Below, in pieces: positions 16,237 through 59,528 of a stretch of DNA of 64,000 nucleotides. The DNA is from Candidatus Pacearchaeota archaeon (GTDB lineage: Archaea > Nanobdellota > Nanobdellia > Pacearchaeales > GW2011-AR1). Within the stretch, counting starts at the first letter, position 1; each line of letters opens with the position of its first letter. Made by a program: the position numbers and the translations under genes. Below the pieces are notes generated by a model. The model saw only the letters and a program-made list of their open reading frames with translations. It was not told the DNA's origin and did no database searches. The DNA is taken from the NCBI GenBank assembly GCA_023144035.1, contig JAGLGM010000003.1, positions 15,876-79,875 of the forward strand, read 5' to 3'.

Positions 16237-16430
16237 AAATCACAAATAAAACAAAAATAAACAAATTGCTTGAAAAAAATCCTGAAGCAGCTGAAATTTT
16301 ATTTGAAGCTGGTATGGGTTGTGTGGGTTGTTCTATGGCTATGCATGAAACAATTGAACAAGGTTGTTTAGCACATGGAATGACAAAAAAACAAATTGAA
16401 AAATTAATTAAGGAGTTAAATAAGAAATGA
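16233..16430 (+). CDS. DUF1858-type redox disulfide small protein
   Basis: GMGCVGCSMAMHETIEQGCLAHG. Confidence 0.5.
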   Translation: MKITNKTKINKLLEKNPEAAEILFEAGMGCVGCSMAMHETIEQGCLAHGMTKKQIEKLIKELNKK

Positions 16431-18004
16431 TGAAATATTCTAAAAAAGTTATGTGTGAATTTCTCAAACCTAAAAACATGGGAGAAATAAAAAATCCAGA
16501 TGGAGTTGGAAAAATTGGAAATCCTACTTGTTTACTTCCAGATGAAAAAATTTGGTTAAATGAAAGTTTTGAAGCAATTAAAAAAACAAATAAAGGAGAT
16601 ATGGTTTTATCACATGATTCTACTGAAAATAAGATTTTAGGAAAATTTTCTAGAGAATATAAAGGAGAAATAATCAGACTAAAAAATGCGCTTGGGAATA
16701 TTTTTCTTACTCCAGAACATCTTGTTTTTGCAATGCGTATTCCAAAAGGAGATAAATTTAAAAGAAATAAAGGTAAAAAACAATTGATTCCTTCATGGTA
16801 TCATGCTGAATATTTGAAAAAAGGGGACATAATATTATATCCTTTTTCAAGAAAAGAAAAAAATATTAAATATTTGACAATAGATATCCCAAAACCCAAA
16901 TATGATTTTAGGAGCAAAAATATTCCAAGTAAAATCTCTCTTAACATGGATCTTTTGAGGCTTTTTGGTTACTTTCTCTCGGAAGGAAATATTCAAGATA
17001 AACCATCTAAAACATATATTTCTTTTGCGTTGCATATTAAGGAGAAAGAAATTGTCGAAGACATAAGAAAGATTGTTAAAAGATTATTTGATTTAGAAAT
17101 AAAATCCAAAGAAAGAATAAAGGAAAATGGGGTCGTTGTTTATATTTACCATGCTCAATTAGCAAGATGGTTTAAAAAATTATTTGGAAATGGTACTCAA
17201 AATAAATATTTACCTGAATTTATAATGCAATTACCCATATCAAAACAAAAAGCATTGATAAAAGGTTTGTGGAAAGGAGATGGATGCATCAATGTGAATC
17301 GTATTGGACCAAGAGCAGGCTATGTTACAATTTCATATAGATTATCTCAACAAATAAAAATCCTTTTACTAAGGCAAAAAATAATCTCTTCATTTTATAT
17401 TGAAAAAGAAAAAAAATCCAAATGGGCTAATCATAAAGAAGCTTATAGAATTCATGTGGGACAAAGAGATTCTCTAAAAAAATTATGTAAAATTTTAAAT
17501 TTAAAACATTGCTCAAAATCTTATGAGTCTATTAGTTCTTGGATTAACAATAATTTTTTATATACCCCTATAACTAAAATAGAAAGAAAAAATTATAAAG
17601 GAAAAGTATATAATTTAGAAGTTGAAAAGACCCATTCATTTATTTCAGAAAGTTTTTGTCTTCATAATTGTGGCGATGTTATGTGGGTTTATATTAAAGT
17701 TAAAAATGATAAAATTACAAAAATCAAATTTAAAACATTTGGATGTGCTGCTGCAATTGCAACATCTTCTATGGTTACTCAACTTGCTAAAGGAAAAACA
17801 ACTAAAGATGCTAAAAAAATTAAAATAAAAGATGTGGCATCTTCTTTAAAAGGATTACCTCCTCTAAAAATGCATTGTAGTGAACTTGCAACAGATGCTT
17901 TAAAATTAGCAATTAAAGATTATGAAAAAAAGAAAACTAATAAAAAGAAAAATGAAAATAGAACAAAAAGTAAAACAAACTTTGAAAAAGATAAAGTTAA
18001 ATAA
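16427..18004 (+). CDS. iscU: Fe-S cluster scaffold IscU/NifU-N, interrupted by an intein; Lys-rich C-terminal tail overlaps the next gene
   Basis: N-extein YSKKVMCEFLKPKNMGEIKNPDGVGKIGNPT; C-extein CGDVMWVYIKVKNDKITKIKFKTFGCAAAIATSSM…LPPLKMHCSELATDALKLAIKDY. Confidence 0.8.
   Translation: MMKYSKKVMCEFLKPKNMGEIKNPDGVGKIGNPTCLLPDEKIWLNESFEAIKKTNKGDMVLSHDSTENKILGKFSREYKGEIIRLKNALGNIFLTPEHLVFAMRIPKGDKFKRNKGKKQLIPSWYHAEYLKKGDIILYPFSRKEKNIKYLTIDIPKPKYDFRSKNIPSKISLNMDLLRLFGYFLSEGNIQDKPSKTYISFALHIKEKEIVEDIRKIVKRLFDLEIKSKERIKENGVVVYIYHAQLARWFKKLFGNGTQNKYLPEFIMQLPISKQKALIKGLWKGDGCINVNRIGPRAGYVTISYRLSQQIKILLLRQKIISSFYIEKEKKSKWANHKEAYRIHVGQRDSLKKLCKILNLKHCSKSYESISSWINNNFLYTPITKIERKNYKGKVYNLEVEKTHSFISESFCLHNCGDVMWVYIKVKNDKITKIKFKTFGCAAAIATSSMVTQLAKGKTTKDAKKIKIKDVASSLKGLPPLKMHCSELATDALKLAIKDYEKKKTNKKKNENRTKSKTNFEKDKVK
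16529..17668 (+). other. Intein (380 aa) with LAGLIDADG homing-endonuclease domain, inserted in IscU between GNPT and CGD
   Basis: Starts CLLPDEKIWLN (block A), LTPEHLVFA (block B TxxH), LFGYFLSEGNI and LIKGLWKGDGC (LAGLIDADG blocks). Ends …VYNLEVEKTHSFISESFCLHN followed by extein Cys. Confidence 0.75.
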
Positions 18005-20391: not shown

Positions 20392-20829
20392 ATGGATTGT
20401 CCATATTGTTCACACATAAATTCAAAAGTAACAGATAAAAGAAAATCTCCACAAGGGGTAAGAAGAAGGAGAGAATGTCTCAAATGTAAAAAGAGGTTTA
20501 CTACATATGAGAAAACAGAAAAAGGAGACCTCTATGTAATAAAAAAACAAGGACAAAGAGAAAAATTTAATAGAGATAAATTAGAATCTGGAATTGAAAG
20601 AGCATTTGAAAAAAGACCTGTTTCAAGAGATAAAGTTCAAAAGATGATTAATGAAATAGAAGAACAAATAAGAAAAAGAGGTAAAAAAGAAATAAAGAGT
20701 TCAATTATAGGTGATTTAGTATCTAAAAAGATAAAAAGACTAGATAAGGTTGCTTATATTAGGTTTGCTTCAGTCTATAGAGACTTTGAAGATATTAAAG
20801 ATTTTAAAAAGGAGTTAAAAGAATTATAA
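20392..20829 (+). CDS. nrdR: Transcriptional repressor NrdR (zinc ribbon plus ATP-cone)
   Basis: MDCPYCSHINSKVTDKRKSPQGVRRRRECLKCKKRFTTYE. Confidence 0.85.
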   Translation: MDCPYCSHINSKVTDKRKSPQGVRRRRECLKCKKRFTTYEKTEKGDLYVIKKQGQREKFNRDKLESGIERAFEKRPVSRDKVQKMINEIEEQIRKRGKKEIKSSIIGDLVSKKIKRLDKVAYIRFASVYRDFEDIKDFKKELKEL

Positions 20830-20831
20830 AA

Positions 20832-23800
20832 ATGATTGAAAAAATAAGTGGTTTAGAAAATAAAACATTTACTCCTGAATATTCTGTTATAAAATTCACA
20901 GACAATCCTTTAAAATATTCTCCAAGAGAATTAAAATCATATGATGAAGATAGGCATATAAAAATTGATGATGCTTATAGTCTTGTTGATTCTCAAAAAA
21001 TAGATAGTTTAAGTTCTGAAAAATTAAGAGAAGCTGTAAATTCCGGAGACATAAGAATTTATGATTTTAAAGAAGAAAAATGTTTAGATAGATTAGATTT
21101 AGGAAAAGTTTACAATAATCCAATTAAAGAAAAACAAGGACTTGAAATTAATAGATATTTTACTCAAGAAGGTGAAAACCCTTTTGATTCAGTTGAATTT
21201 AAAAAAAGAGATTTTCAAATAGTAGATAAAGATACAAAAAAAATTATTTTCGAGATGAAAAATACAGAGTTTCCAGAATGGATAGATGAAACTTCAGCCA
21301 CCATTGTTGCAAATAAATATTTTTTTAATCCAGATAAAAAAGAATGGAAACAAAAAATAAAAAATAAGCTTGGAAGAGATCATGAATATTCTCTTAAACA
21401 TCTTAATAGTAGAGTTACTGATTTTATTACAGGAGAAGGTTGGAAATTAGGTTATTTTAAATCAGAAAAAGATAGAGAAATATTTAGAGACGAACTTAAC
21501 TTCATACAAATTAATGGAATAGGTTCTTTTAATTCCCCAGTACAATTTAATGCAGGATTATTTAATTCATATGGTATTCAAGGAAGTTCTGGAATAAATT
21601 ATTGGAATGATCCTGAAACAGGAGAGGTGAAAAAAGTTGTTAATGGAGAATATATACACCCTCAATTACATGCTTGTTTTATTAAAGGACCAAATGATGA
21701 TTTAGAAAGTATTTTACAACATGGAATTGATGAAGGAGCTATTTTTGCTTCTGGTTCTGGAATAGGTCAAGACATTGGAGTTTTAAGAGAAGGAGGAGGA
21801 ACTCTTTCAGGAGGAGGAAAAGCTTCTGGTCCAAAAAGTTTTACTATTTGGTATGATAAAGGAGCAGGAACAATTAAATCAGGAGGTAAAACAAGAAGAG
21901 CTGCTAGAATGACAATTATGAGGCAAGATCATCCAGATATTCAAGAATTTGTTGGAATGAAAATTGCTGAAGATAAAAAAGCTTTAACCTTAATACAAAA
22001 TGGATATGAGAATGGAATGGATGGTGAAGCTTATACAACTGTTTCCCTTCAAAATACTAATTTTTCAGTTAGATTAGATGATTATTTCTTTAAAACTCTT
22101 GATCAAGGAGGAAAAATTGAATTAAGAGGAATAAAAGATAAAAAAGTAAAGGGGAAAGTTTCTGCTGATTCTCTTTTAAAAGAAATTTCTTTTGGAAGTT
22201 GGAGAATTGGAGATCCAGCAGTTCAATATGATAGTCAAATTCAAAAAATGCATACTTCTAAAAATTCAGGGAAAATAAAATCAAGTAATCCTTGTGGAGA
22301 ATTTATGAATATTGATAATACTTCTTGTAATCTTTATGCTAATAGGTTAACAGCATTTATAGATGAAAATGGAAATTTTGATGTTGAAAAATATAAATAT
22401 TCTGTAAGAATTGCTGCAATTGCTCAAGATATTGCTAATAAAGCAGCTTCTTATCCTGTTAAAGATATAGCGTCTATAAGTCCAGAATTTAGTTCAATTG
22501 GTCAAGGATTTGCTGATTTAGGTTCTTTATTAATGAGAAAAGGATTAGCTTATGATTCTGACGAAGCAAGATCATTAACTGCAGCTATTTCTGCTTTAAT
22601 GACTGGTACTGTTTATGAGACTTCAATTGAAATGGCTGAAAAATTAGGAACTTTTGAACATTATGAATTTAATCAACAACCTATGCTAAATGTAATGAAA
22701 AAACATAAAAAAAATCTTAAAGATGTTGATTGGGAAAAAATGGAAGATCCTAATTTGAAAAGAGCAGCTTATAAATCTTGGAACAATATCCTTAAAGAAG
22801 GAAAAGAACATGGTTTTAGAAATTCTCAAACAACTGTTTTAGCTCCAACTGGAACAACCTCTTTTTTAATGGGCTGTAGCACCACAGGTATTGAACCTGC
22901 ATTTTCTTTGAGTACTACAAAAAATCTTGCTGGAGGAGGCCATGTAACAATTACAAATAAAGATGTTAAATTTTCATTAAATAATTTAGGATATTCTGAA
23001 GAAAACATAAAAGATATTTCAAAATTTGTTGAAAAATATAATACTTTAATTGATGCACCTCATTTAAATCCAGAACATTATCCTATATTTGACACTGCTA
23101 TAGGGAATAATGGAAAAGGAAGTATTAGTTTAGAAGGACATATGAAAATGATGGGAGCTGCACAACCTTTTATTTCTGGAGCTATTTCAAAAACAAATAA
23201 CCTTCCAAAAGAATCAACTGTTAAAGATATTTATGATGGCTATCTTTTAGGAGATGAACTTGATTTAAAAGGAGTTACAATCTTTAGGAGTAGTAGTAAA
23301 CCTGTTGCTGCATATGGAGATTCTGAAGTAGGTGTTAAATTAAAAAGAGGAGAAAAAGAAGAATTACCTTTTAGTGGAGATAGTTTTAGACAAGAAATTA
23401 AAATAAATCAAGCTCCTTTTTTAATAAACATTGGAGAATATGAAGATGGAAGACCAGGAGAAATTGTTATTAATTCATATACTTCTGATTCAACATTAGG
23501 AGCTGTTTTAAGAACAGCAGGAATTTCTGCATCTAGTGCCCTTAAGAGAGGGTCTGATCTAGAAGATGTTTTTAAAGGATGGATAGGCCATGGTTTTGAA
23601 CCTCGTGGTCTTGTAAAAATTGAAAATTCAAAAGGAGTAATAAAACCCCACCCTTATATAAAAGAAGCTTCTTCTCCATTAGATTTTGCAGGAAGATTAG
23701 CCCTTTTACATTATAAAGGTGAAAAAGATTTTGCAACAGAACCAGATCAAGTTAATTTAGGTGATTTAAGAGGTGCAAAGAATGGGGCATTTAAAACATA

Positions 23801-24029
23801 TCAAAGAATGGAAGTAGATGAATGGAATATTGATGATGTTTTAAAAGATGCTGAAACAGGAGGTTTTGTTAATGAGAGTGAGTTTTCAAATGGAAATAAA
23901 AAGAAAAAAAATGGGAATAATAAAGGACTTCTTTGCACTACCGGTTGTGGAGGATTAATGGTTCAAACAGGACCTAATTGCTTCCAATGTAATAGTTGTG
24001 GAGAAAAACGTGGAGGATGTGGAGGATAG
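20832..24029 (+). CDS. nrdJ: Ribonucleotide reductase, class II (B12-dependent, NrdJ-type) with C-terminal Cys-rich tail
   Basis: NPCGEF active site; C-terminal CTTGCGGLMVQTGPNCFQCNSCGEKRGGCGG; 3 nt downstream of nrdR (operon). Confidence 0.8.
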   Translation: MIEKISGLENKTFTPEYSVIKFTDNPLKYSPRELKSYDEDRHIKIDDAYSLVDSQKIDSLSSEKLREAVNSGDIRIYDFKEEKCLDRLDLGKVYNNPIKEKQGLEINRYFTQEGENPFDSVEFKKRDFQIVDKDTKKIIFEMKNTEFPEWIDETSATIVANKYFFNPDKKEWKQKIKNKLGRDHEYSLKHLNSRVTDFITGEGWKLGYFKSEKDREIFRDELNFIQINGIGSFNSPVQFNAGLFNSYGIQGSSGINYWNDPETGEVKKVVNGEYIHPQLHACFIKGPNDDLESILQHGIDEGAIFASGSGIGQDIGVLREGGGTLSGGGKASGPKSFTIWYDKGAGTIKSGGKTRRAARMTIMRQDHPDIQEFVGMKIAEDKKALTLIQNGYENGMDGEAYTTVSLQNTNFSVRLDDYFFKTLDQGGKIELRGIKDKKVKGKVSADSLLKEISFGSWRIGDPAVQYDSQIQKMHTSKNSGKIKSSNPCGEFMNIDNTSCNLYANRLTAFIDENGNFDVEKYKYSVRIAAIAQDIANKAASYPVKDIASISPEFSSIGQGFADLGSLLMRKGLAYDSDEARSLTAAISALMTGTVYETSIEMAEKLGTFEHYEFNQQPMLNVMKKHKKNLKDVDWEKMEDPNLKRAAYKSWNNILKEGKEHGFRNSQTTVLAPTGTTSFLMGCSTTGIEPAFSLSTTKNLAGGGHVTITNKDVKFSLNNLGYSEENIKDISKFVEKYNTLIDAPHLNPEHYPIFDTAIGNNGKGSISLEGHMKMMGAAQPFISGAISKTNNLPKESTVKDIYDGYLLGDELDLKGVTIFRSSSKPVAAYGDSEVGVKLKRGEKEELPFSGDSFRQEIKINQAPFLINIGEYEDGRPGEIVINSYTSDSTLGAVLRTAGISASSALKRGSDLEDVFKGWIGHGFEPRGLVKIENSKGVIKPHPYIKEASSPLDFAGRLALLHYKGEKDFATEPDQVNLGDLRGAKNGAFKTYQRMEVDEWNIDDVLKDAETGGFVNESEFSNGNKKKKNGNNKGLLCTTGCGGLMVQTGPNCFQCNSCGEKRGGCGG

Positions 24030-24107: not shown

Positions 24108-24614
24108 ATGAAAAAAAGAAAGATTCCTAATTGGGATGATTATTTTATGTCAATGGTTTATCTTGTTGCATCAAAAAGTAAAGATGAAAGAACTCATATT
24201 GGAGCAATTATTGTAGGTGAAAATAAAGAAGTTGTTTCTTTAGGTTACAATAGTTTTCCTAGAGGGCTTAATGATAATATTTCTAAAAGGCAAGAAAAAC
24301 CAGAAAAAGATTATTGGTTTGAACATGCTGAAAGAAATGCTATTTACAATGCAACTTTAATTGGAACTTCTTTAAATGGATGTAAAATGTATACAAATGG
24401 TATTCCTTGCATGGATTGTGCAAGAGGTATTGTTCAATCGGGAATTCTTGAAGTTATTGTAGATAAAAAATGGAATGAAAGTAATACAGGAGATGATTTA
24501 GAACATTCAAAAAGAACAATTCAAATGTTTAAAGAAACAGGTGTTAAATTAAGATATTGGAAAGGAAAACTTTTGAAGATTGAAAAGTTTCGAGGAAAAA
24601 AGGCCTTGAAATAA
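24108..24614 (+). CDS. dCMP deaminase (ComEB-type)
   Basis: HAERNAI and PCMDCARGI zinc-binding motifs. Confidence 0.8.
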   Translation: MKKRKIPNWDDYFMSMVYLVASKSKDERTHIGAIIVGENKEVVSLGYNSFPRGLNDNISKRQEKPEKDYWFEHAERNAIYNATLIGTSLNGCKMYTNGIPCMDCARGIVQSGILEVIVDKKWNESNTGDDLEHSKRTIQMFKETGVKLRYWKGKLLKIEKFRGKKALK

Positions 24615-24686
24615 AACATCTATCACAATTAAACTTAAAAAGAAACTTATCTCAGAGATAAGATAAAAAAGGAGATTAATAAAAAA

Positions 24687-25262
24687 ATGCCAATTTCAGC
24701 TTTAAAATTATTAGAATTAAATGAAAAATATAATTTAATTGAAAATCTTTCTGAAAGAGAATTATTAAATCCAGAAGGTGTTGGAACAGATCTTAGAGTT
24801 GGTGAAGTTTACAAAATAATAGAGCCAGGATTCTTAGGAATTGACGAAAGACACACTCCAGCAATTAAAAAAGTAGCAGATATAAATGAAGGAGATAAAA
24901 AAGTAGTTTTAAATCCTGGAGCATATGTTTTAGTTAAAACAATGGAAAGACTTAATGTTCCAGCTGAAAAAATCTCTCTTGAAACATGGAAAGCGTCTAG
25001 ATATCTTATGCCTGTTGTTTATCCTAGGAGCACTTTACAAAGATGTGGAATTGCTTTATTTAGAACAAAAACAGACCCAGGATATTCAGGAGAATTAACT
25101 TTTGGTTTAACAAATTTAGGAAACCAGAAATTCACATTTGAATTAGGTGCTAGAATGTTTAATGTTGTGTTTGAACCTGTAATAGGTGATATAAACAGAG
25201 CTTATAGTGGACAACACAATCAAGGCAGAGTTAGTGGCGGAGTAACTGAATTTCAGAATTGA
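24687..25262 (+). CDS. dCTP deaminase / dUTPase-family protein
   Basis: DPGYSGELTFGLTNLGNQKFTFELGARMFNVVF resembles the dCTP deaminase C-terminal motif. Confidence 0.55.
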   Translation: MPISALKLLELNEKYNLIENLSERELLNPEGVGTDLRVGEVYKIIEPGFLGIDERHTPAIKKVADINEGDKKVVLNPGAYVLVKTMERLNVPAEKISLETWKASRYLMPVVYPRSTLQRCGIALFRTKTDPGYSGELTFGLTNLGNQKFTFELGARMFNVVFEPVIGDINRAYSGQHNQGRVSGGVTEFQN

Positions 25263-25335
25263 TTTTTTTATAAAATTTAAATAATTCTTAAAATATATTT
25301 TAGATTGCTATTATATTTATAAAAGAAACTTAGTT

Positions 25336-27033
25336 ATGAATAAGATGACAATAAAACACGGTGATCAAACCTATATGACTGATAATGATCTTACAATAAA
25401 GATTATGGGTCTTTGGCCAAGTTTTAATATATCTAATCCTGAGTTAAAAAAAGAATTTGAAAAGAAATTTGGAAGAGGATTTTTAGGAGGAGATGATTTG
25501 GTTTCTTATGCACAACCTCTTGTTTCGAGTGGAATGGATTTTGAAAAATTAGAAGAAACAATCTTTGGAGACATGTATAATGAAGAAGGAAAAAATTTTG
25601 AAGATATTTTATTTAATAAAACTGCAACAGGAATTGGAAGAGGACATTCTTTAGGAGGGTTATCTGGAGTTGTTCTAGGAGTTCATGGAACAAAAATGAT
25701 TGATTCTGGATTAACAGGATTATGTTCTTCAAGATCTTTAGTTACAAGTAGCAGAAGAAGGGAAACTGGAACAGCAGATATTGCAATCCCAGAAAGCTTA
25801 CAAAAACATCCAAAATTACTCAAAAAATATATGCAAATTTCTGAGGAAGTTTTCAACTTAGGAAAAGAATTTAAAGAAAAATTTGGAAAAATGGGAGGAG
25901 TTGAAACTTTCAATAAAGTTATTCCTTATAATAATCCTGCTGATTTATTTATTGTTTTACCCTTAGATACAATGGCTACCATTACTGCAGAAGTTAGAGA
26001 AGATGCTTTGAATCCAAATGGAACTTTTCTTCCTAGAGAAATACATGCATTATCTGCAATGTTTCCAGAAATAACAAAAGAAATTGGTCAAAGTACTATG
26101 TATAAACAAAGAATTGAAGTTCCAAGAGATAATTATATGCATTATAATGTTTTCAAAGACCCTGGTTTTCCGAACCATGCACTTGAACTTGGAACGGAAT
26201 TAGGTTTGGAAAATATTGATCCTCTTGTTGTAAATACTTTTTTTGACAACACTAAAGGATTTCGTGTTGCTGCAAATTATGCTTTAGAAGCAATTAAACA
26301 AGCACAAAAAAGTGATAATCCAAAAGAACTTCATGAAAAATCATTAGAAGCAATGTATGCTTTGAGAAAATTTGCTAATGAATACAATGAATCAGTAAGA
26401 ATTCAAATAGGAGACACTTTGTCTTGGAGAGTCTGGTCTGAACAAAAAAGACATTCAACCTTAAGACAAACTGTTGAATCTGTTTATTCTGGAGCTGAAA
26501 GAGCTTTAAAAGGAATTACTCCTCTTTGGCCAACTATTGAAGTAGCATATAATGAAAACGATTTTGAAAAATTAAATGGGGTATTGAGTGAATTAGAAAA
26601 AAATATTATTATTGATAATAGGCTAAAAAGAAAACCTGAAGTTATAATTCCTTATGCTTATCACACTGCAAAACAATTAATGCTTTATCAAGAATTTTTA
26701 GATGCAGGTATTCCTGCAAGGGATGCTTTATTTGCTGTTCCAAAAAATATTAGATTAAGAACTTCTGAGAATTATGATTTAACTAATTTAATTGATTTAG
26801 AATTTCCTTTAAGACTTTGTAATACTTGTGAACCTGAAAGAAAAGCTAGTTCTTGGAAAAAAAGAGAAATTATCGTTGAAGAACTTCCTGATTTAGAGCC
26901 TTTCTTAAAATCAAAATGTAATGTTGGTTTTTGTACTGAAGGAAAATATTGTAATCAAATTACAGATATGAGAGAGTATGATGAAGGATTACATAAGGCA
27001 ACTAAACAATATATGTTAGATAAAGCTAAATAA
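25336..27033 (+). CDS. Hypothetical 565-aa protein inside the dNTP-metabolism block; C-terminal Cys cluster
   Basis: ORF track; CNTCEPERK…CNVGFCTEGKYCNQ. Confidence 0.45.
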   Translation: MNKMTIKHGDQTYMTDNDLTIKIMGLWPSFNISNPELKKEFEKKFGRGFLGGDDLVSYAQPLVSSGMDFEKLEETIFGDMYNEEGKNFEDILFNKTATGIGRGHSLGGLSGVVLGVHGTKMIDSGLTGLCSSRSLVTSSRRRETGTADIAIPESLQKHPKLLKKYMQISEEVFNLGKEFKEKFGKMGGVETFNKVIPYNNPADLFIVLPLDTMATITAEVREDALNPNGTFLPREIHALSAMFPEITKEIGQSTMYKQRIEVPRDNYMHYNVFKDPGFPNHALELGTELGLENIDPLVVNTFFDNTKGFRVAANYALEAIKQAQKSDNPKELHEKSLEAMYALRKFANEYNESVRIQIGDTLSWRVWSEQKRHSTLRQTVESVYSGAERALKGITPLWPTIEVAYNENDFEKLNGVLSELEKNIIIDNRLKRKPEVIIPYAYHTAKQLMLYQEFLDAGIPARDALFAVPKNIRLRTSENYDLTNLIDLEFPLRLCNTCEPERKASSWKKREIIVEELPDLEPFLKSKCNVGFCTEGKYCNQITDMREYDEGLHKATKQYMLDKAK

Positions 27034-27058
27034 AAACGTTTATAAAAATTATTAATAA

Positions 27059-27994
27059 TTATAGCAACCTCACCAACCATTTCTTATCTAAATATTTTTT
27101 TGTTATAGTTTCTTTCAAATTTATTCCTGCACTCATATCAATTGAAGAAGGCATTAACAGATTTTTCTTATAATCTGGAGGAGAGATAGTTAGTTGCATT
27201 CCTTTTGCCCAATAAAATTTTCTAAATAAAAAACCTTCTGAATCTTTTGAGGTTGGATCTTCTTCAAGAATGTAAGATATTTCATCTTTTTCAAATAATT
27301 CTTTAAAACTAAATCCTATATTATTTAAAGATTTTAAAATAGATTTTTTAATAATTTTATTTACCTCTTCTTTGTTCTTATTTGAAAAAAGAGTAATTAA
27401 ATCAATATCTAAATAAGATTTTCCCATTATTTCTTTTGCTAAAAGTGGTTTCGGGCTTCCCCTTTTACAAGCAGATCCTGTTAAATAAATTTCATTACAC
27501 ATTGATTTAATTTGGTTGACAAATTCAAGAATGAACTTTTGATCTATCTCTGTTAAATATCCCTTAAAATACTTGTCAAAGCGTTTACTATCTGAAATTA
27601 AAGGAATTTCGTTAAAAGAAGTGTATGCATTTATTATATTACTAAGATTTAATGAATATGTTTTTTTTGAATCATCAAAAAAATAAAAAACTGCTTTAAA
27701 ATCTTCTTGAGAATGGGGTTGCAAAATTTTTGAACAATTTTCACAAGGAATAGCTCTTTTTACATTCTCTGGTTTTCCATTTGCCATAAGATGTATTTCT
27801 TTTATCTTAAAATCTTCTTTATCTTTTCTAGCTTTACTAACTGCTATATCTTCGGCATGCAAAATCCTCTCTTCTTTTTCAACATTATATCCTTCATATA
27901 ATTTATTTTCTTTTGTTATTAAGATACATCCAACTTTTCTACTTGTTAATGGAGCTTGTGCTTTTTTTATAAGTTTTATTAGTTGCTCGTGCAT
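27059..27994 (-). CDS. Fusion protein: N-terminal cytidine/deoxycytidylate-deaminase-fold domain plus C-terminal minimal nucleotidyltransferase (Pol-beta superfamily) domain
   Basis: HAEDIAV … PCENCSKIL (CDA zinc motifs); LTGSACKRGS…SYLDIDLI (GS-x-DxD NTase motif). Confidence 0.55.
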   Translation of the reverse strand: MHEQLIKLIKKAQAPLTSRKVGCILITKENKLYEGYNVEKEERILHAEDIAVSKARKDKEDFKIKEIHLMANGKPENVKRAIPCENCSKILQPHSQEDFKAVFYFFDDSKKTYSLNLSNIINAYTSFNEIPLISDSKRFDKYFKGYLTEIDQKFILEFVNQIKSMCNEIYLTGSACKRGSPKPLLAKEIMGKSYLDIDLITLFSNKNKEEVNKIIKKSILKSLNNIGFSFKELFEKDEISYILEEDPTSKDSEGFLFRKFYWAKGMQLTISPPDYKKNLLMPSSIDMSAGINLKETITKKYLDKKWLVRLL

Positions 27995-48100: not shown

Positions 48101-49126
48101 TTAATTAGAATATCTCCCAATCACAGTCAAATTATAACACAAAGATTTTAATAACATTTCATTATCCTTTGCTGTGTCGGTTTTTGTTCGCAACCAATTA
48201 GTAAGTTTCTTTTTCATAACTGAAAAAACAGATTCAACTAAAACCCTATAACGATACGATTCATGCCAAATTTCCTCTTCATTTTTATACAGATGGAAAG
48301 CATCACTCCATGCTTTACTCTTTGGATGTTTACCTGTTATATTTGATTTGAAATCAATAAAAACTTCCTTTATTCCAAGTTCCTGACATAAAGAATAATT
48401 ATCTTTGCTTAAATAACCTGCATCAGCGAGACATTTTTCGATAAGAAAACCATTTTTACAAACATTAGAAACAATCTCATTAAACATAGGACAATCATGT
48501 TGAGTTCCATGAGTTGGAATAGCATAAGCAATTATTTTGCTGTTTGTTAAACAACCAATATGTAACTTTTTAGTTTTGGTTAATGAGGGGGCAGAAGGAT
48601 TAGATTTTGGTTTATTTGAATAACCCCCAACATACATTTTAAGTCCGAACCAAGTTGAGTCTATAGCCAAAGTATTTTCCTGATTAAGAAAAGGCATAGC
48701 AGAAATTTGTATTAATTTGCTTAACTTTTTTGTTAAGGTCTTGTCATTCATATATTTACTTAAAGTGCTTCGTTTGGGTATTGATGAAATTACACCTAAA
48801 CTTTTTGCTAAAAGTAAGTCTGATTGAACTCTACGATAAGAAAGACCATTCAAAGATAGGATTAATAATGATTTGAAAATATCATTTAAATTGAATCTTG
48901 GTCTTCCTTCATATTGAGGCATGTTCAAAACAGCATTATCAATAAATTCAGAGCAAATTTTTAGAAATCTTGCTCTTTCAGTTTCAAGGTAATTTTCTTG
49001 TTTTTTAAGCACAGGAAGTGTAGTAGTCATTGTCATTTTATATATATTTAGACTGAATATTATTAAATAATAATGATATAAAGGTATATAAATGTATCTA
49101 TTTTTGATAATATATAGTCTGAACAT
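48101..49126 (-). CDS. DDE transposase (IS4/IS5-like, DDE_Tnp_1 type); true start probably internal (MTMTTTLPVL…)
   Basis: LAIDSTWF (D), CLADAGYLSKDN (D), YRYRVLVESVFSVMKKKL (E, Y-R-E-K). Confidence 0.65.
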   Translation of the reverse strand: MFRLYIIKNRYIYIPLYHYYLIIFSLNIYKMTMTTTLPVLKKQENYLETERARFLKICSEFIDNAVLNMPQYEGRPRFNLNDIFKSLLILSLNGLSYRRVQSDLLLAKSLGVISSIPKRSTLSKYMNDKTLTKKLSKLIQISAMPFLNQENTLAIDSTWFGLKMYVGGYSNKPKSNPSAPSLTKTKKLHIGCLTNSKIIAYAIPTHGTQHDCPMFNEIVSNVCKNGFLIEKCLADAGYLSKDNYSLCQELGIKEVFIDFKSNITGKHPKSKAWSDAFHLYKNEEEIWHESYRYRVLVESVFSVMKKKLTNWLRTKTDTAKDNEMLLKSLCYNLTVIGRYSN

Positions 49127-52804: not shown

Positions 52805-54010
52805 ATGAACACAAAAATGAACACAAAGAACCTTATGGTTTCTTTCTGTACTATTGCAATTGTTTTATTCTTAGTAGCTTTTGTTAGTGCTGCTGAGATA
52901 GCCACAATTGATTCTGTAGAAGTTAATGGTGTTGATACAAACGGATATAATGTTGCTGTTATTGCTGGTAATACTTTAAATATTGAAGTATTATTCACTG
53001 CTCTGTCAGATAATTCTAATGTAAGAATTGAAGCAGAACTTACAGGAACTAAAGTTGATGTTAGTGAAAAAACTGCATTCTTTGATGTTGAAGCTGACAA
53101 GACCTATCCAAAATCTCTTGAGTTAACTCTTCCTTACGAACTTAAAGATGTTCAAAGTGGAGATTTTAATCTTAATGTAAGAATTTGGAATAGTGAAACT
53201 GAGTCAGAATATAGCACTATTTTAAGAATTCAAAGACCTTCATTCAATGCAGATGTTATGTCTATAGAAGTTAGTCAAACTGTTGTTGCTGGTGAAATGC
53301 TACCAGTTGATGTTGTATTAAAGAACATTGGTTACAATGATCTTGATGATACATATGTTACTGTAAGTATTCCTGCACTTGGTATTGAAAAAACTTCTTA
53401 TTTTGGAGATATTGTATCTTTAGAAGATAATGACAATGATGATTTTGCTAAAGGAAGATTTTATTTAAGAGTTCCATACGAAGCTCTTGAAGGAATCTAT
53501 ACTATTGAAGTAGAAGTATCAAATGATGACTTAAACGTAATTGAATCTGAAGAAATTATTGTTAAAAATGATTTCTCAGCTGGAAACTTAATTGTAAATA
53601 GTTTTAGAAAAATTGTAGCAACTGGTCAAGATGCTGAATATAGTTTCATGATTGTAAACCCAACTAATCAGTTAAAGGTTTATCAAATCGTTACTGAATC
53701 TAACAGTAATCTTTATACAAATGCTAACACTGCTGTTATTGCTGTTCCTGCTGGAACAAGTAAGACAGTTACTGTAACTGCAAATGCTGTTGAAGAAGGT
53801 GAACACACTTTTAATGTGAATGTGCTTTCTGGAAACAACCTTGAAGGAGTTATTACATTTAGCCTTAATGCTGAAGGTAAACAATCAAACTCTATCGCAG
53901 TTTTAACAGTTATTTTAGCAATAGTATTTTTAGTATTACTAGTTGTTTTAATTGTATTACTAGGAAAGAAACCCCAAAAAACTGAAGAATTCGGAGAAAG
54001 TTATTACTAA
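52805..54010 (+). CDS. Cell-surface protein: signal peptide, Ig-like beta-rich body, C-terminal TM anchor
   Basis: Signal LMVSFCTIAIVLFLVAFVSA; C-terminal IAVLTVILAIVFLVLLVVLIVLLGKK. Confidence 0.55.
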   Translation: MNTKMNTKNLMVSFCTIAIVLFLVAFVSAAEIATIDSVEVNGVDTNGYNVAVIAGNTLNIEVLFTALSDNSNVRIEAELTGTKVDVSEKTAFFDVEADKTYPKSLELTLPYELKDVQSGDFNLNVRIWNSETESEYSTILRIQRPSFNADVMSIEVSQTVVAGEMLPVDVVLKNIGYNDLDDTYVTVSIPALGIEKTSYFGDIVSLEDNDNDDFAKGRFYLRVPYEALEGIYTIEVEVSNDDLNVIESEEIIVKNDFSAGNLIVNSFRKIVATGQDAEYSFMIVNPTNQLKVYQIVTESNSNLYTNANTAVIAVPAGTSKTVTVTANAVEEGEHTFNVNVLSGNNLEGVITFSLNAEGKQSNSIAVLTVILAIVFLVLLVVLIVLLGKKPQKTEEFGESYY

Positions 54011-55158: not shown

Positions 55159-55539
55159 TTATTCAATATCTAAACTTATTTTAATTGCCAAATCAACTTG
55201 AGACATCAGATAAGGATTTAGCTTTGAAATTCTTTTTTTAATCATAGATTTATCAACTGTTCTTAATTGATTTAATAAAATATTTGAATCTAATTTGAGT
55301 TTTGAATCTTTTTTAGATAAAAAAACATTTGTGGGAAAGTTTTTTGTAAAATTTCTTGAAGTTATGGCAGCAACAATTATCACAGGACTATATTTATTAT
55401 AAAGATTATTTTGTATAACAATGGCTGGTCGAATCCCTCCTTGCTCTGAGCCTCTAACTGGTTCAAAATCAACAATAACTATGTCTCCTCTAGAGATCAC
55501 CTTCCCACTCCCACTTCGAAAGATCTTCCATTGCTTCAA
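55159..55539 (-). CDS. mazF: MazF/PemK-family endoribonuclease toxin
   Basis: GDIVIVDFEPVRGSEQGGIRPAIVIQNN. Confidence 0.75.
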   Translation of the reverse strand: MKQWKIFRSGSGKVISRGDIVIVDFEPVRGSEQGGIRPAIVIQNNLYNKYSPVIIVAAITSRNFTKNFPTNVFLSKKDSKLKLDSNILLNQLRTVDKSMIKKRISKLNPYLMSQVDLAIKISLDIE

Positions 55540-55750
55540 ATTCTTTTGTTATCTTTAAATTTTCTTCAGCCATTTCTTTACATCCTTCAATCATTAATTC
55601 TTTTCTCTCTTCTTTCTGAATTTTTACTGACTTTATTAAATTAAGAATTACTTCTTCATAACTTTGTCTTGGAGATTTTTTGTAAGAGTTAAGTGTTTCT
55701 TTTACTTGATTACTTAATTGAATTGTAGATATCATAATTCTATAGAACAA
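55490..55750 (-). CDS. Putative antitoxin partner of MazF
   Basis: Small acidic protein immediately upstream, overlapping mazF by 50 nt. Confidence 0.45.
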   Translation of the reverse strand: MFYRIMISTIQLSNQVKETLNSYKKSPRQSYEEVILNLIKSVKIQKEERKELMIEGCKEMAEENLKITKEFEAMEDLSKWEWEGDL

Positions 55751-55823: not shown

Positions 55824-55942
55824 TGCGAAATATGGTTTATGAGCATTCGTGAAACGATTCTGAAAGAACTATGCGAAGCGACTATGTCTGCGAGCATCCT
55901 ATGAAATAGGTGCATGAAACAATTATATTTTAAGACTTATAA
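55824..55942. other. 119-bp relatively GC-rich insert with internal ~50-nt tandem duplication, flanked by a ~45-bp imperfect duplication of the SMC gene 3' end
   Basis: ttt(t)actaataccatcatgcatt at 55943-55965 (codes the SMC C-terminus) and again at 55802-55823. Between them tatgcgaa…gagcattc and tatgcgaa…gagcatcc units. Confidence 0.4.
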
Positions 55943-58796
55943 TTTTACTAATACCATCATGCATTGAGACTCCATAAAGATTTGTTGCGTTTGATATTAC
56001 CTCATCATTGTGTGTAATTACAATATATTGTCCTTTTTTCATATATTTTTGGAGAAGATTTGCTAAACGTTCTGAGTTTCTTTTATCTAATGCTGCGTCA
56101 ATTTCATCAAGAATATAAAAACAATAAGGATTTAATTCTTGAATTGCGAAAATTAATGACAAAGCTACTAACACTTGCTCCCCTCCTGAAAGAGACCTAA
56201 CATCAAAGTATTTTCCATGACCTGTTTTAACAATTATATTAACCCCTCCATCAAAAGGATCTTTTCTATTTTCTAAATCTAATGAAACTTGTCCTTTTGT
56301 GCTTAATAAAGTAAAATTGCTTGAAAACTTTTCATTTAATTCATCTAATGTTTTCAAAAAAACCTTTTTCTTTTTAATATCTATTTCATGAATTATTTTT
56401 AAAATTCCTTCTTTTTCTTTTGTAATAATTTCTGATTTATCTCTAACAGAATCATATTCTCTTTTTACAGAATCATAAACTTCCAAAGAACGCATATTAA
56501 TAGATCCTATTCTAGCCAACATGTCTTGTGTTTTTACTAATCTTTCTACAAGATTCTCTCTTTTTGATTTTATAACTTGAATATTTTTAAATTCTAATAA
56601 TTCTGTTTCGTGATTTTCAACAATCGCGTCTACTCTTGCTTTATCAATTTTAAAATTGTTTATATCTTGTTCAATATTATAAATAATATTTTTTTTATCT
56701 GATAATTCATATTCATTTTCTCTTATCTTTTTCTGAAAATTATCTTTTTCTGAAATTAATTGTTGAAACTTTTTACTTAATTCTTCTTCTTGTTTATTTT
56801 TTTTCTCGAGAATTTTTTCTTTTTCATCTATAACATTTTGAACTGCTTTTATTTCTTCATGTAAATCTTCTTGTTCCCTTAATAATTGCTTTAAGGATAT
56901 TTTTGACCTATCTAATTCTCTTTGTTTAAAAGATATTTCAGAATCAACATCTTCCTCGTTTCTTAAAGAAATTTCTTGAACTTCTACTCTTGTAGTTTCA
57001 TATTTTTGCTCAATATTTTGATTATCTTCAAAATTCCTTTCAAGCCTCTTTTTTATTTTATCTAATTCTGTAAACTCTTCTTTTGTCTTTTGAACTCTTT
57101 CTTGAATTTCTTTAAGTTGTTGTTTCTTTTCTCCTATATTTAAAAGTTTCATTAAATCAGATTCTCTTTTTGAGATTTCAGAAGTTAGTTGATCTATATC
57201 TTGTTTTATTAAATCTTTTTTATTATGAATATTTACTAATTCTTTATCTGATTTTTCAATATCTAAATTTAAATTATTTAACCTTGGTAAAGTGTCTTGA
57301 TTTATTTCATGAACATGTGCTTCTGTTATTTTGCTCTTACATATTGGACAAACATCCATTTTAGAAATATTTTCAATTAATTTGTTTTCTTTGTCAATTT
57401 CATTTTCATTTGCAGAAGATATTCTTTCTAATTCTATTTCTCTTTTATTTATAGAATCTAAAATTTCTTTTCTTTGTGCTAAAGATAATCTTAGAGATTC
57501 TACTTTTGTTTTATTAGTATTTTTATCAAATAATTCTTCATAAAGAATTTTCATTTGTCTTAATAAAAATTCAGATTCATTTTCATAATTCTTAAGGAGA
57601 GATGTTTTATCTTGAAATCTTTCTTTAATTGATTTTAATTCAGATTTAGCCATATAAAATTTTTTTCTTTGTTCTTCTAATTTTTCTAATTCTTGTTTTT
57701 TTAATTCAACTTCTTTATCTTTAAGTGTTTTTTTAGAGCTTGAACTTTTTGATACAGTTTTTTTTAAATCTTGAATATACTCTTCGGTTTCTTTAATAGT
57801 TTCTTCAAATTCTTGTTTTTGTTTTAATAGAACTGAATGTTTACTTCCATAATTCTCAGACCTTACACTTAATCCTGCAAGTTCTGCCCTAATATTTGCA
57901 ATTTCTTGATTAAGTTTTTCTTGTTCTAATCCAGTTGATTCTTGAATAGTTTTATTTATGTAATTAATTTTTGATTCAAAATTTTCTATATTTGTTCTTA
58001 AAATTATTATTGACTTCTTAATTTTATCAATTTCTTTATTCTTTTTAGCAATCTCTTCATTTATCTTTTCTATTTCTTTTTTATTTTTATTTATATCATA
58101 TGAAATTACACTTGCTTTCAATATCTTCACATCTTTCTCAAGTTTCTTAAATCTTAATGCTTGTTGCCTTTCTTTTTCTAAATTATTTAAATAAGCTGTC
58201 CTTTCTCTTAATATTGCTGCAACTTCTTTTAGTTTTTCCTCAGTTTTATTTAATTCTTTTAGTGATTTTTCTTTTCTTGATTCATAAATAGATATTCCTG
58301 AAACTTCTTCAAGTATCTTTCTTCTATCATCAGGATACATTCTTACAAAATTTTGAATTTCGCCTTGAAGAATTATATTAAAACCATTAGGATCAATTCC
58401 TGCTTGAGCAAGTAATCCTAAAACTTGCTGTCTTGTTTTTGTTTCATTATTTATCTTGTAAATGCTTTGCCCATTTTTTCTGACTATTCTTTTTATAGAA
58501 ACTTCATTTTTATCTATTGAAAAAGTTCTATTAGAATTATCAAAAACCATTTCAACACTTGCTTCTTTTGCAGGACTAGCTGCTTTTGTTCCTAAGAATA
58601 TTAAATTCCTTGCTTTTGCTGCTCTCATAGATTTTATACTTAATCTTCCTAAAACAAAACAAAGAGCGTCTGAGACATTTGATTTTCCGCTTCCATTTGG
58701 ACCTAAGATTACATTTATACCCTCTGTAAAAGGTATTTCTGTTTTTCTTGGAAAACTTTTAAATCCATGCATCACCAGTTTTTTTATATGAGCCAT
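55923..58796 (-). CDS. SMC-family ATPase with SMC-type heads and a central Rad50-like CPxC zinc-hook motif in place of a hinge (957 aa)
   Basis: N-terminal GPNGSGKSNVSDALCFVLG; C-terminal LSGGEQVLVALSLIFAI…LDEIDAALD; mid-protein MDVCPICKSKITEAHVHEI inside coiled coil. Confidence 0.8.
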   Translation of the reverse strand: MAHIKKLVMHGFKSFPRKTEIPFTEGINVILGPNGSGKSNVSDALCFVLGRLSIKSMRAAKARNLIFLGTKAASPAKEASVEMVFDNSNRTFSIDKNEVSIKRIVRKNGQSIYKINNETKTRQQVLGLLAQAGIDPNGFNIILQGEIQNFVRMYPDDRRKILEEVSGISIYESRKEKSLKELNKTEEKLKEVAAILRERTAYLNNLEKERQQALRFKKLEKDVKILKASVISYDINKNKKEIEKINEEIAKKNKEIDKIKKSIIILRTNIENFESKINYINKTIQESTGLEQEKLNQEIANIRAELAGLSVRSENYGSKHSVLLKQKQEFEETIKETEEYIQDLKKTVSKSSSSKKTLKDKEVELKKQELEKLEEQRKKFYMAKSELKSIKERFQDKTSLLKNYENESEFLLRQMKILYEELFDKNTNKTKVESLRLSLAQRKEILDSINKREIELERISSANENEIDKENKLIENISKMDVCPICKSKITEAHVHEINQDTLPRLNNLNLDIEKSDKELVNIHNKKDLIKQDIDQLTSEISKRESDLMKLLNIGEKKQQLKEIQERVQKTKEEFTELDKIKKRLERNFEDNQNIEQKYETTRVEVQEISLRNEEDVDSEISFKQRELDRSKISLKQLLREQEDLHEEIKAVQNVIDEKEKILEKKNKQEEELSKKFQQLISEKDNFQKKIRENEYELSDKKNIIYNIEQDINNFKIDKARVDAIVENHETELLEFKNIQVIKSKRENLVERLVKTQDMLARIGSINMRSLEVYDSVKREYDSVRDKSEIITKEKEGILKIIHEIDIKKKKVFLKTLDELNEKFSSNFTLLSTKGQVSLDLENRKDPFDGGVNIIVKTGHGKYFDVRSLSGGEQVLVALSLIFAIQELNPYCFYILDEIDAALDKRNSERLANLLQKYMKKGQYIVITHNDEVISNATNLYGVSMHDGISKIISLKI

Positions 58797-58835: not shown

Positions 58836-59528
58836 TTAAAAATCTAATTTTTTTTGCTCTGATTTTGCTTGAGCTTTTTTCCAAGTAATCCAATTTTTCC
58901 TAAATATTCCACTATCTTTATGTTTGCTTACATTTTTTGTTAAAAACTTTGAAGTTGAAGGATCAGAAGTATAACCAGAACCTATTTCTTCTCCATACTT
59001 TTTCTTAAGTTTATCCATTTCTTTTTCCCTTGTACTTTTAGCAAGGATAGAAGCAGCTGAAACAGAAACATGGTTTTTATCTGCTTTATGTTCACATACA
59101 ATATCTAAATTTGATAAATCTTTTACTTTTGTCATTAAAAAATCTCTCCACTTAATTATGCTTGTAGAAGGACAATCTACAACTACTTTTATTTTACAAG
59201 CTTCAGATTTATCTTTTAAAGATATTTCTTTATTTATTTTATTGATTATTTTAGCTGTCTTTATAGCTTCTAACATATTAAGATTTGTTCCTGAATCTTG
59301 TTTTTTATTTATTTCGTCTGCATCAGCTAATACAATTTCAAAACTTATTACTTCTTCTTTTATTTTTTGGGTTAAAAACTCCCTTCTTTTAGAAGTTAAT
59401 TGTTTAGAATCTCTTACACCTAATTTCTTAAATTTTCTTGCAGTTTTTTCGTCAATTAAACAACCTGCTAAAACCATTGGACCAATTACTGGACCCCTTC
59501 CTGCATCATCAATTCCTAACTCTAACAT
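58836..59528 (-). CDS. rnhB: Ribonuclease HII
   Basis: LGIDDAGRGPVIGPMVLAG. Confidence 0.85.
   Translation of the reverse strand: MLELGIDDAGRGPVIGPMVLAGCLIDEKTARKFKKLGVRDSKQLTSKRREFLTQKIKEEVISFEIVLADADEINKKQDSGTNLNMLEAIKTAKIINKINKEISLKDKSEACKIKVVVDCPSTSIIKWRDFLMTKVKDLSNLDIVCEHKADKNHVSVSAASILAKSTREKEMDKLKKKYGEEIGSGYTSDPSTSKFLTKNVSKHKDSGIFRKNWITWKKAQAKSEQKKLDF

Follow-up and report, generated by a model that had tools for sequence, protein, structure and literature searches.

A chromosomal SMC protein of Pacearchaeota with a predicted Rad50-type zinc hook in place of the hinge

The window analyzed here, a stretch of 64,000 nucleotides from a Candidatus Pacearchaeota archaeon (GenBank assembly GCA_023144035.1, contig JAGLGM010000003.1, forward-strand positions 15,876 to 79,875), contains on its minus strand, at positions 55923-58796, a complete and intact gene (ATG start, 957 codons and a stop) for a protein of the SMC family, in which a predicted Rad50-type zinc hook occupies the place of the hinge. 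Most probably, this protein serves as the Smc component of a prokaryotic condensin-type complex, Smc-ScpA, and had its hinge replaced once in evolution by a zinc hook; it is best described as a chromosomal SMC in which nature has exchanged hinge for hook, a variant widespread in Pacearchaeota. The contig of origin, a metagenomic scaffold, measures 142 kb; the GC content of the window is low (0.24-0.31), and the NCBI entry identical to the protein is named simply "chromosome segregation protein SMC" of Candidatus Pacearchaeota archaeon.

The protein, hereafter the window SMC, is matched by Pfam SMC_N (173.7 bits) over residues 3-950, and its parts follow each other along the minus strand. The N-terminal half of the ATPase head (residues 1-167; 58296-58796), as defined by a motif scan, alignment with the Pyrococcus Smc head and a full-length AlphaFold model, contains the Walker A motif GPNGSGKS at residues 32-39 and the Q-loop LQG at residues 143-145. 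It is followed by an ascending coiled-coil arm (residues 168-479; 57360-58295), with modelled helices at 168-208, 220-288, 290-347, 360-420, and 429-479, and, beyond the apex, by a descending arm (residues 495-831; 56304-57314), with helices at 492-591, 595-610, 617-734, 746-763, and 774-831, both arms being delimited by a phmmer alignment to the closest hinge-bearing relative and by the helices of the model. The apex between the arms, MDVCPICKSKITEAH (residues 480-494; 57315-57359), is the predicted zinc hook, recognized from the translation, the conservation of CPxC, Pfam, a family profile, AlphaFold, and Foldseek; the CPIC codons occupy positions 57339-57350, and C483 and C486 are the predicted zinc ligands. 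The C-terminal half of the head (residues 832-957; 55923-56303), assigned from the motif scan, the Pyrococcus Smc alignment and Foldseek, carries LSGGE at 869, the Walker B motif FYILDE at 893, the D-loop DEIDAALD at 897, and the H-loop VITH at 926-929, with the Walker B/D-loop stretch FYILDEIDAALD corresponding to residues 893-904. All motifs named in a previous sequence-only reading of this DNA (Walker A, LSGGE, Walker B/D-loop, and the hook) could thus be located in the 957-residue open reading frame (ORF). The protein has only 4 cysteines (residues 46, 483, 486, and 892), 2 of which belong to CPIC.

The heads are those of an SMC rather than of Rad50. A sequence search against PDB returned Pyrococcus Smc head constructs at the top (E = 1e-105, 1e-96, and 1e-86), followed by eukaryotic SMC2, SMC3, SMC1, and SMC4, whereas Rad50 heads appeared only at approximately 1e-15; within the aligned blocks, the heads are about 50% identical to those of Pyrococcus Smc. 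Among the NCBIfam models, SMC_prok_A (TIGR02169) and SMC_prok_B (TIGR02168) scored 525.5 and 512 bits, respectively, compared to at most 115.9 bits for Rad50, 108.7 bits for ASRP, and 38 bits for arcadin-4. Consistently, the structures closest to the full-length AlphaFold model (mean predicted local distance difference test [pLDDT] score of 79.9) are those of SMC proteins, with Foldseek retrieving the Pyrococcus Smc head-ScpA complexes 5XNS and 4I99 at target template modelling (TM) scores of 0.90-0.91 and the first Rad50 at rank 13. The arms are colinear with those of the closest hinge-bearing relative, a Woesearchaeota SMC of 1142 residues with a Pfam hinge at 508-618 (P0149): residues 2-481 of the window SMC correspond to residues 2-483 of this relative, and residues 508-957 to residues 697-1142. 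With approximately 312 and 337 residues, the antiparallel arms have full SMC length. The heads of the window SMC are, as judged from these comparisons, true SMC heads. Both the SMC-like rather than Rad50-like character of the termini and a length about 200 residues below that of hinge-containing SMCs had been noted in the sequence-only reading; the measured difference from the closest hinge-bearing relative is 185 residues.

The same comparisons bear on 2 other family assignments. An ortholog of Rad50/SbcC with heads that are SMC-like in appearance only would account for the CxxC hook, which matches the hooks of Rad50, and for a length similar to that of archaeal Rad50 (the NCBIfam Rad50 models have 872-895 positions), but the Rad50 scores are far from the cut-offs of these models (700-1087 bits) and from the scores of the SMC models, the PDB E-values favor Smc, heads and arms are colinear with those of an SMC, no Mre11-type phosphoesterase lies beside the gene in the window or at 4 related loci, and the kleisin ScpA, which Rad50 does not need, is present. 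The curated-model scores and PDB E-values effectively refute this assignment, to which we give next to no probability. Nearly as improbable is membership of ASRP (ClsN/coalescin, Sph1/2), a zinc-hooked archaeal family that likewise unites heads of the SMC superfamily with coiled coils and a zinc-hook motif (PMC9389158) and the NCBIfam model of which matches the window SMC with E = 3e-31. This match, however, falls well below the cut-off of 300 bits (NF045487) and involves only head segments of the 593-position model, whereas the SMC models score 5 times more and align along both heads and arms. Furthermore, the tree of SMC heads described below puts the window SMC inside the canonical archaeal SMCs, and membership of ASRP was rejected on the basis of the curated-model score and the tree. 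Thus, of the earlier proposal of an "archaeal SMC-related protein," the combination of SMC heads with a hook stands, but a separate family akin to ASRP/ClsN does not; the tree and the gene order indicate an SMC ortholog.

The apex sets the window SMC apart from canonical SMCs. The hinge module and its junctions, comprising 213 residues in the Woesearchaeota relative, correspond to 26 residues in the window SMC, centered on C483-P-I-C486. Pfam SMC_hinge (PF06470) had no match in the whole protein, nor in the central 131 residues at E ≤ 10, and our own hinge hidden Markov model (HMM) matched 100 relatives, with no hook form among them. A degenerate hinge around CPIC, which the sequence-only reading had put forward as the finding that would speak against a hook, was not borne out and is ruled out by the nil Pfam hinge signal and by the mere 26 residues that separate the aligned arms. 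The central 131 residues were instead matched by Pfam Rad50_zn_hook (PF04423) with 20.4 bits (E = 4.5e-4), a score that does not reach the cut-off of 24.3; a 68%-identical relative (P0075) exceeds it with 24.8 bits.

A further comparison was made with a profile that we built from 21 diverse members of the family and that spans 115 residues around the apex. Searched against PDB, this profile matched the Pyrococcus furiosus Rad50 hooks 6ZFF (E = 6.4e-13) and 1L8D (E = 5.9e-12) and human RAD50 hook chains (3.7e-5 for 5GOX, and 1.4e-3), with the best non-Rad50 match at 0.015; a search of a 5.8-billion-protein database yielded 3 matches, all fragments. In the profile alignment, D-x-C-P-x-C-K-x-K-I-T-x-E-H is in register with G-K-C-P-V-C-G-R-E-L-T-D-E-H, and the register of CP-x-C-x-[RK]-x-[IL]-T-x-E-H equals that of P. 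furiosus Rad50 across 12 positions. The native P. furiosus segment scored 49.1 bits, compared to 18.1 bits with the hook masked, 21.4 bits for the hook alone, 18.9 ± 4.0 bits for the hook in shuffled flanks, and 20.9 bits for the best of 791 arm segments of hinge-type SMCs, indicating that the motif and its in-register flanks both contribute and that ordinary SMC arms do not yield the signal. AlphaFold predicts the 115-residue region as a hairpin (helices 2-50 and 65-114, joined by a short loop in which CPIC occupies 56-59) with a pLDDT of 94.8 and CPIC at the tip, which locates the apex by structure prediction, as had been suggested in the sequence-only reading; in the full-length model, the sole turn between the arms is at residues 480-491. 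Foldseek comparison of the apex model with PDB returned Rad50 hooks first (1L8D chains B and A, then 5GOX), albeit with the weak E-values expected for a helical hairpin, and the best superposition was obtained with the rod-form P. furiosus hook 6ZFF_B (TM scores of 0.81/0.75, root-mean-square deviation of 2.2 Å). Identification of the apex as a Rad50-type zinc hook, which had been proposed from the central CPIC motif, is thus supported by profile and predicted fold.

The motif is conserved throughout the relatives of the window SMC. CPxC[KR]xx[IVM]TxxH was present in all 120 database clusters with at least 66% identity, and in a search of 1.84 billion representatives, all full-length relatives alignable with the query over their entire length (946-1023 residues, down to approximately 37% identity) had CPxC midway along the sequence, but none of the hinge-bearing SMCs did. 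The hook clade comprises at least 120 clusters at 90% identity and at least 21 full-length representatives at 50% identity. Classification of 151 sequences (150 representatives and the query) yielded 100 with a hinge, 35 with a hook (fragments included), 16 with neither, and none with both. In alignments of 18 and 40 full-length members, invariance from residue 214 to residue 720 is limited to G289, C483, P484, and C486, and H494 is conserved in at least 90% of the sequences; in the alignment of the apex, the sequences of which are 14-41% identical to the query, the C, P, and C are the sole invariant residues. This pattern goes far beyond chance and points to strict selection on the 2 cysteines across the archaeal clade. 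G289 of the ascending arm (window positions 57930-57932) falls where the AlphaFold model interrupts the helix for a single residue, between helices 220-288 and 290-347, and may mark a conserved discontinuity of the arm.

A hook that joins 2 chains is not the only conceivable role for such a motif: CPxC could serve structurally as a turn, provide a redox or metal site within one chain, or be the product of convergence, and any dimerization would then take place elsewhere. The existence of close relatives of about 800 residues which are cysteine-free at the apex yet seemingly maintained suggests that the chemistry of the apex is dispensable, and the profile score stems in part from the coiled-coil flanks, while the structure prediction concerns a monomer. 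However, 2 cysteines are insufficient for a tetrahedral zinc site within one chain, and there is no other conserved Cys or His nearby save H494, which corresponds to a non-ligand His in the P. furiosus Rad50 hook. Moreover, the 12-position register match with P. furiosus Rad50 and the absolute conservation of both cysteines and the proline over large divergence fit a ligand role. A function of CPxC other than as an intermolecular hook is therefore very unlikely in our view.

Where the hook forms belong among SMCs was assessed with neighbor-joining trees of the heads. In the first tree (331 head columns, 127 sequences), the 21 full-length hook forms and 4 of the ~800-residue relatives were separated from all others by one split (bootstrap 0.91). 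In the second tree, to which taxon-labelled SMCs from a genome scan were added and which was rooted with 11 bacterial SMCs, all in one group, the hook clade, with bootstrap support of 0.93, is found 10 nodes deep within the hinge-bearing archaeal SMCs. Its sister is a group of 38 sequences, namely, 36 hinge-class representatives and 2 labelled loci, from Woesearchaeota and Nanoarchaeota, which also match our hinge model; the successive outgroups are hinge-bearing or taxon-labelled full-length SMCs, with the exception of 6 sequences with neither module. Because the hook clade is nested among hinge-bearing SMCs, parsimony suggests that the hinge is ancestral and has been replaced once. The sequence-only reading had envisaged a phylogeny that includes Rad50, SbcC, and archaeal SMC-related families; our trees comprise SMCs only, and within that scope the heads fall inside the archaeal SMCs under a bacterial root.

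Gene order is consistent with the trees. A gene for RNase HII (58836-59528, minus strand; Pfam RNase_HII, 157.6 bits) lies 39 bp upstream of the SMC gene and serves here as a syntenic marker, not being part of the complex. RNase HII is found upstream of and on the same strand as the hook SMC in the window, in a 68%-identical relative on a 509-kb contig (L082/L083) and in the most divergent hook form (L090; 1023 residues, 40% identity), and the same order is observed for a form of 804 residues with neither module (L088) and for the 1142-residue Woesearchaeota hinge form (L084/L085); the gene context of another hinge form, P0151, is different. Collectively, tree and synteny point to the window SMC being the lineage's own SMC ortholog in which the apex module has been exchanged. 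Alternatively, the hook form could be a specialized paralog that is dedicated to DNA-end tethering or repair or forms a ClsN-like second layer of compaction, with a canonical hinge SMC encoded elsewhere. Indeed, zinc-hooked extra proteins of the SMC superfamily, the ASRPs (ClsN/Sph), occur in other archaea (PMC9389158), some archaea have 2 SMC homologs (bioRxiv 10.1101/2021.05.15.444277), and the sequences examined here are parts of contigs rather than whole genomes. Nevertheless, the RNase HII-linked site that harbors the hinge form in the sister lineage is occupied here by the hook form, the hook clade is sister to, and not intermingled with, the hinge-bearing clade of the Woesearchaeota type, as would be expected of orthologs in sister lineages, and the 2 modules do not occur together in any classified sequence. 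No second SMC was found in approximately 85 kb of the source contig or in 20-kb flanks in 4 relatives, and DPANN genomes are small. We therefore consider a paralog unlikely.

The probable identity of the window SMC as an Smc subunit is further consistent with the presence of a predicted partner. The first 613 positions of the window (minus strand) contain the N-terminal 204 codons of a gene for the kleisin ScpA (Pfam SMC_ScpA, 30.7 bits with a cut-off of 24.6), as recognized in the sequence-only reading; the gene continues beyond the left edge of the window, and the whole ScpA gene, encoding 298 residues (PF02616), is present on the same contig (L087, 7984-8880). Searches among window ORFs of at least 120 residues revealed no Mre11 or other metallophosphoesterase, NurA/HerA, Rad50, or second SMC, in agreement with the earlier remarks that Mre11 is not adjacent and that the window has no hinge-bearing canonical SMC; no metallophosphoesterase or Mre11 was found in the 10-kb flanks of 4 related loci either.

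According to the mechanism we propose, the monomer would fold back on itself such that one ABC ATPase head is built from residues 1-167 together with 832-957 and a full-length antiparallel coiled-coil arm from 168-479 together with 495-831, with C483-P-I-C486 as the turn at its far end. In Rad50 hooks, one Zn2+ is shared between 2 chains (structures 1L8D and 6ZFF). In a Rad50-like manner, 2 monomers of the window SMC would join at their apices through one shared zinc ion held by 4 cysteines, C483 and C486 of each chain. The heads would engage on ATP, and ScpA would bridge both heads, at neck and cap, thereby closing a ring. The complex would then organize and segregate the chromosome in the way of a hinge-type Smc-ScpA. 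Both the ring with ScpA and the chromosome-organizing function are inferred; the hook itself would have been derived from a Rad50 gene.

Several observations weigh against our interpretation. The SMC scores stay below the equivalog cut-offs of the respective models (525.5 versus 729.4 bits for TIGR02169, and 512 versus 567.35 bits for TIGR02168), probably for want of a counterpart to the hinge section that the models contain; the NCBIfam match consists of 2 stretches, with the hinge section skipped. Zinc binding and dimerization at the apex are expected on the basis of homology, and the AlphaFold models are those of monomers. The coiled-coil flanks supply part of the Rad50 profile score, so that a short CPxC..T.EH motif might conceivably have arisen on the hairpin by convergence. 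The pairing of the hook clade with its sister group has modest support (0.61), and the trees are distance-based, with some 330 head columns. No ScpB was identified among window ORFs of at least 120 residues or beside ScpA. Finally, although the window SMC is presumably the only SMC of its genome, another SMC, with a hinge, or Rad50 together with Mre11 could be encoded elsewhere.

Some relatives of the window SMC carry neither apex module. SMC homologs of approximately 780-804 residues from Pacearchaeota (P0287, corresponding to the 804-residue form at L088 10001-12415, as well as P0140, P0143, P0144, and P0147) lack both the CxxC hook and the hinge, and their center is a plain, cysteine-free coiled coil. 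In the head tree, they lie inside the hook clade, scattered rather than forming one group, and the RNase HII-SMC synteny is kept, which suggests secondary loss of the hook accompanied by shortening of the arms. Short SMC homologs, of about 750-760 residues, are also encoded by bacteria of the candidate phyla radiation (Patescibacteria and Saccharibacteria; L031 2456-4741, L041 3568-5853, L045 6933-9179, and L049 8169-10424). These have no CxxC and no match to our hinge HMM, although a model derived from archaeal hinges could fail to recognize a divergent bacterial one; they may be akin to the "hinge-less" SMCs of marine Actinobacteria. Size variation of another kind is seen in the hook-SMC relatives P0019, P0122, and P0130, which contain a LAGLIDADG intein of approximately 530 residues just past the Walker A region; at 1660-1800 residues, several hinge-bearing relatives would, going by size alone, have room for a comparable insertion.

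The gene belongs to the core chromosome, with genes for DnaG-type primase, EF-1alpha, EF-2, ribosomal proteins S7 and S12, RpoB/RpoA, and ribonucleotide reductase nearby. A defense-island or mobile SMC-like protein (Wadjet, Lamassu) was rejected based on this location and the conserved synteny; MukB and JetC structures rank far below those of SMC. Directly downstream of the SMC gene are a MazF/PemK toxin gene (126 residues) and a small antitoxin-like gene (86 residues), at 55159-55750 on the minus strand. The pair is missing at the syntenic L082 locus, and an unrelated MazEF pair is found near the Woesearchaeota SMC (L084). A predicted surface protein of 401 residues (52805-54010, plus strand), with an N-terminal signal or transmembrane segment, a C-terminal transmembrane segment and a weak FixG_C Ig-like match, also neighbors the SMC in the relatives L082 and L088. 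At L090, a ThyX gene is located directly downstream of the SMC gene.

Signs of mobile DNA are present near ScpA, namely, a phage-type integrase (7740-8900) and a DUF4145 protein (6710-7726), and an AbiEii toxin-like gene (L087, 2250-3200) is situated about 5 kb past the left edge of the window. A DDE transposase is encoded at 48101-49126. The window further contains an intein-bearing NifU/IscU-like gene (525 residues, 16427-18004; Intein_splicing and LAGLIDADG_3) and a deoxynucleotide-metabolism cluster (20392-24029 and 24108-27994). The latter begins with an NrdR-like repressor (Zn ribbon and ATP cone) directly upstream of a class II ribonucleotide reductase of 1065 residues and continues with a dCMP deaminase, a dCTP deaminase-like protein, a 565-residue ORF with a weakly ThyX-like C-terminus, and a second protein with a deaminase domain.

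The hinge is regarded as a defining part of SMC proteins, and models that explain how DNA enters the complex, how loops are extruded, and how hinge and heads communicate assign it active roles. More broadly, Pacearchaeota and their relatives may operate with a sole chromosomal SMC that is hinge-less, a single orthologous locus having passed from a hinge (in Woesearchaeota) to a zinc hook (in most Pacearchaeota) and further to no apex module at all, with arms shorter by approximately 150 residues in total (in some Pacearchaeota). This wider proposition is tentative, and we give it slightly less than an even chance. If it is true, the roles proposed for the hinge in DNA binding or as a gate would not be universally required for SMC function, and even the covalent-like dimerization at the apex might be dispensable in nature.

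Engineered proteins provide the precedent. B. subtilis Smc in which the hinge has been swapped for the P. furiosus Rad50 hook supports normal growth and retains alignment of the arms, the correct length of which is still needed (Buermann et al. 2017, PMC5344682), and in Rad50, too, the 2 modules can be exchanged for each other, the reverse swap being functional in the fission-yeast protein (PMC6969161). The swap in B. subtilis Smc shows that the design of a hook-type SMC is workable. It suggested that the identity of the dimerization domain hardly matters; here, the same swap would be natural and retained across an archaeal clade, providing an evolutionary test of the notion that the essential SMC activity resides in the heads, arms, and kleisin. 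It would also constitute a clear exchange of modules between SMC and Rad50, the 2 principal branches of their superfamily. For structural and single-molecule studies, a compact SMC, 185 residues shorter than its closest hinge-bearing relative and with a simple, metal-dependent predicted apex, could be useful. As for annotation, the hook forms are named plain "SMC," and the equivalog HMMs fail to catch them. The interest to the SMC field is clear, even if tempered by the engineered precedent.

In the literature, the hook and the hinge are viewed as family-specific, with exchanges having been only engineered (PMC7752040), and surveys of archaeal SMC diversity treat the SMCs of DPANN archaea as canonical, the hook being unmentioned. 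The archaeal relatives of SMC described as hook-bearing are the ASRPs (PMC9389158). In the literature searched, we found neither a natural bona fide SMC with a hook, although a mention in the 2020 classification of ABC ATPases in Nucleic Acids Research (Krishnan et al.) is possible, nor a report that ties a zinc hook to Pacearchaeota, Woesearchaeota, Nanoarchaeota, or "hinge-less" SMCs. As far as these searches go, a hinge-to-hook swap has hitherto been reported only from engineered proteins, with the window SMC being a natural case.

Compared to known systems, the window SMC most resembles the Smc of Smc-ScpA(B), such as that of Pyrococcus (TIGR02169), in having heads with all motifs, colinear arms, an encoded ScpA, and the corresponding place in the tree, and it shares its chromosomal position with the hinge-bearing SMC of Woesearchaeota. 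Unlike canonical Smc, it is devoid of the hinge (PF06470), which provides dimerization and a DNA-binding surface, and has the 26-residue CPxC segment instead. In this segment, it resembles the hook of Rad50/SbcC (PF04423; 1L8D, 6ZFF, and 5GOX), in which CP-x-C-x-[KR]-x-[IL]-T-x-E-H is likewise set on a coiled-coil hairpin, but unlike Rad50/SbcC, it has SMC heads and a kleisin, and no Mre11 gene nearby. With ASRP (ClsN/coalescin and Sph1/Sph2), it has in common an archaeal SMC-superfamily ATPase, a coiled coil, and a central zinc-hook motif, a feature that is also found in Rad50 and is thus not discriminating; ASRP is a separate, shorter family of approximately 600 residues, compared to the 957 residues of the window SMC. 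The "hinge-less" SMCs of marine Actinobacteria (Sussfeld et al. 2025, PMC12153180) are natural, too, and equally without a hinge, but they are bacterial and explicitly devoid of CXXC, whereas the window SMC is hooked and has full-length arms. The closest parallel in design is the engineered B. subtilis Smc(Zh), which also combines SMC heads and arms with a Rad50 hook; Smc(Zh) is a laboratory chimera, whereas the form described here would be natural, ancient, and clade-wide.

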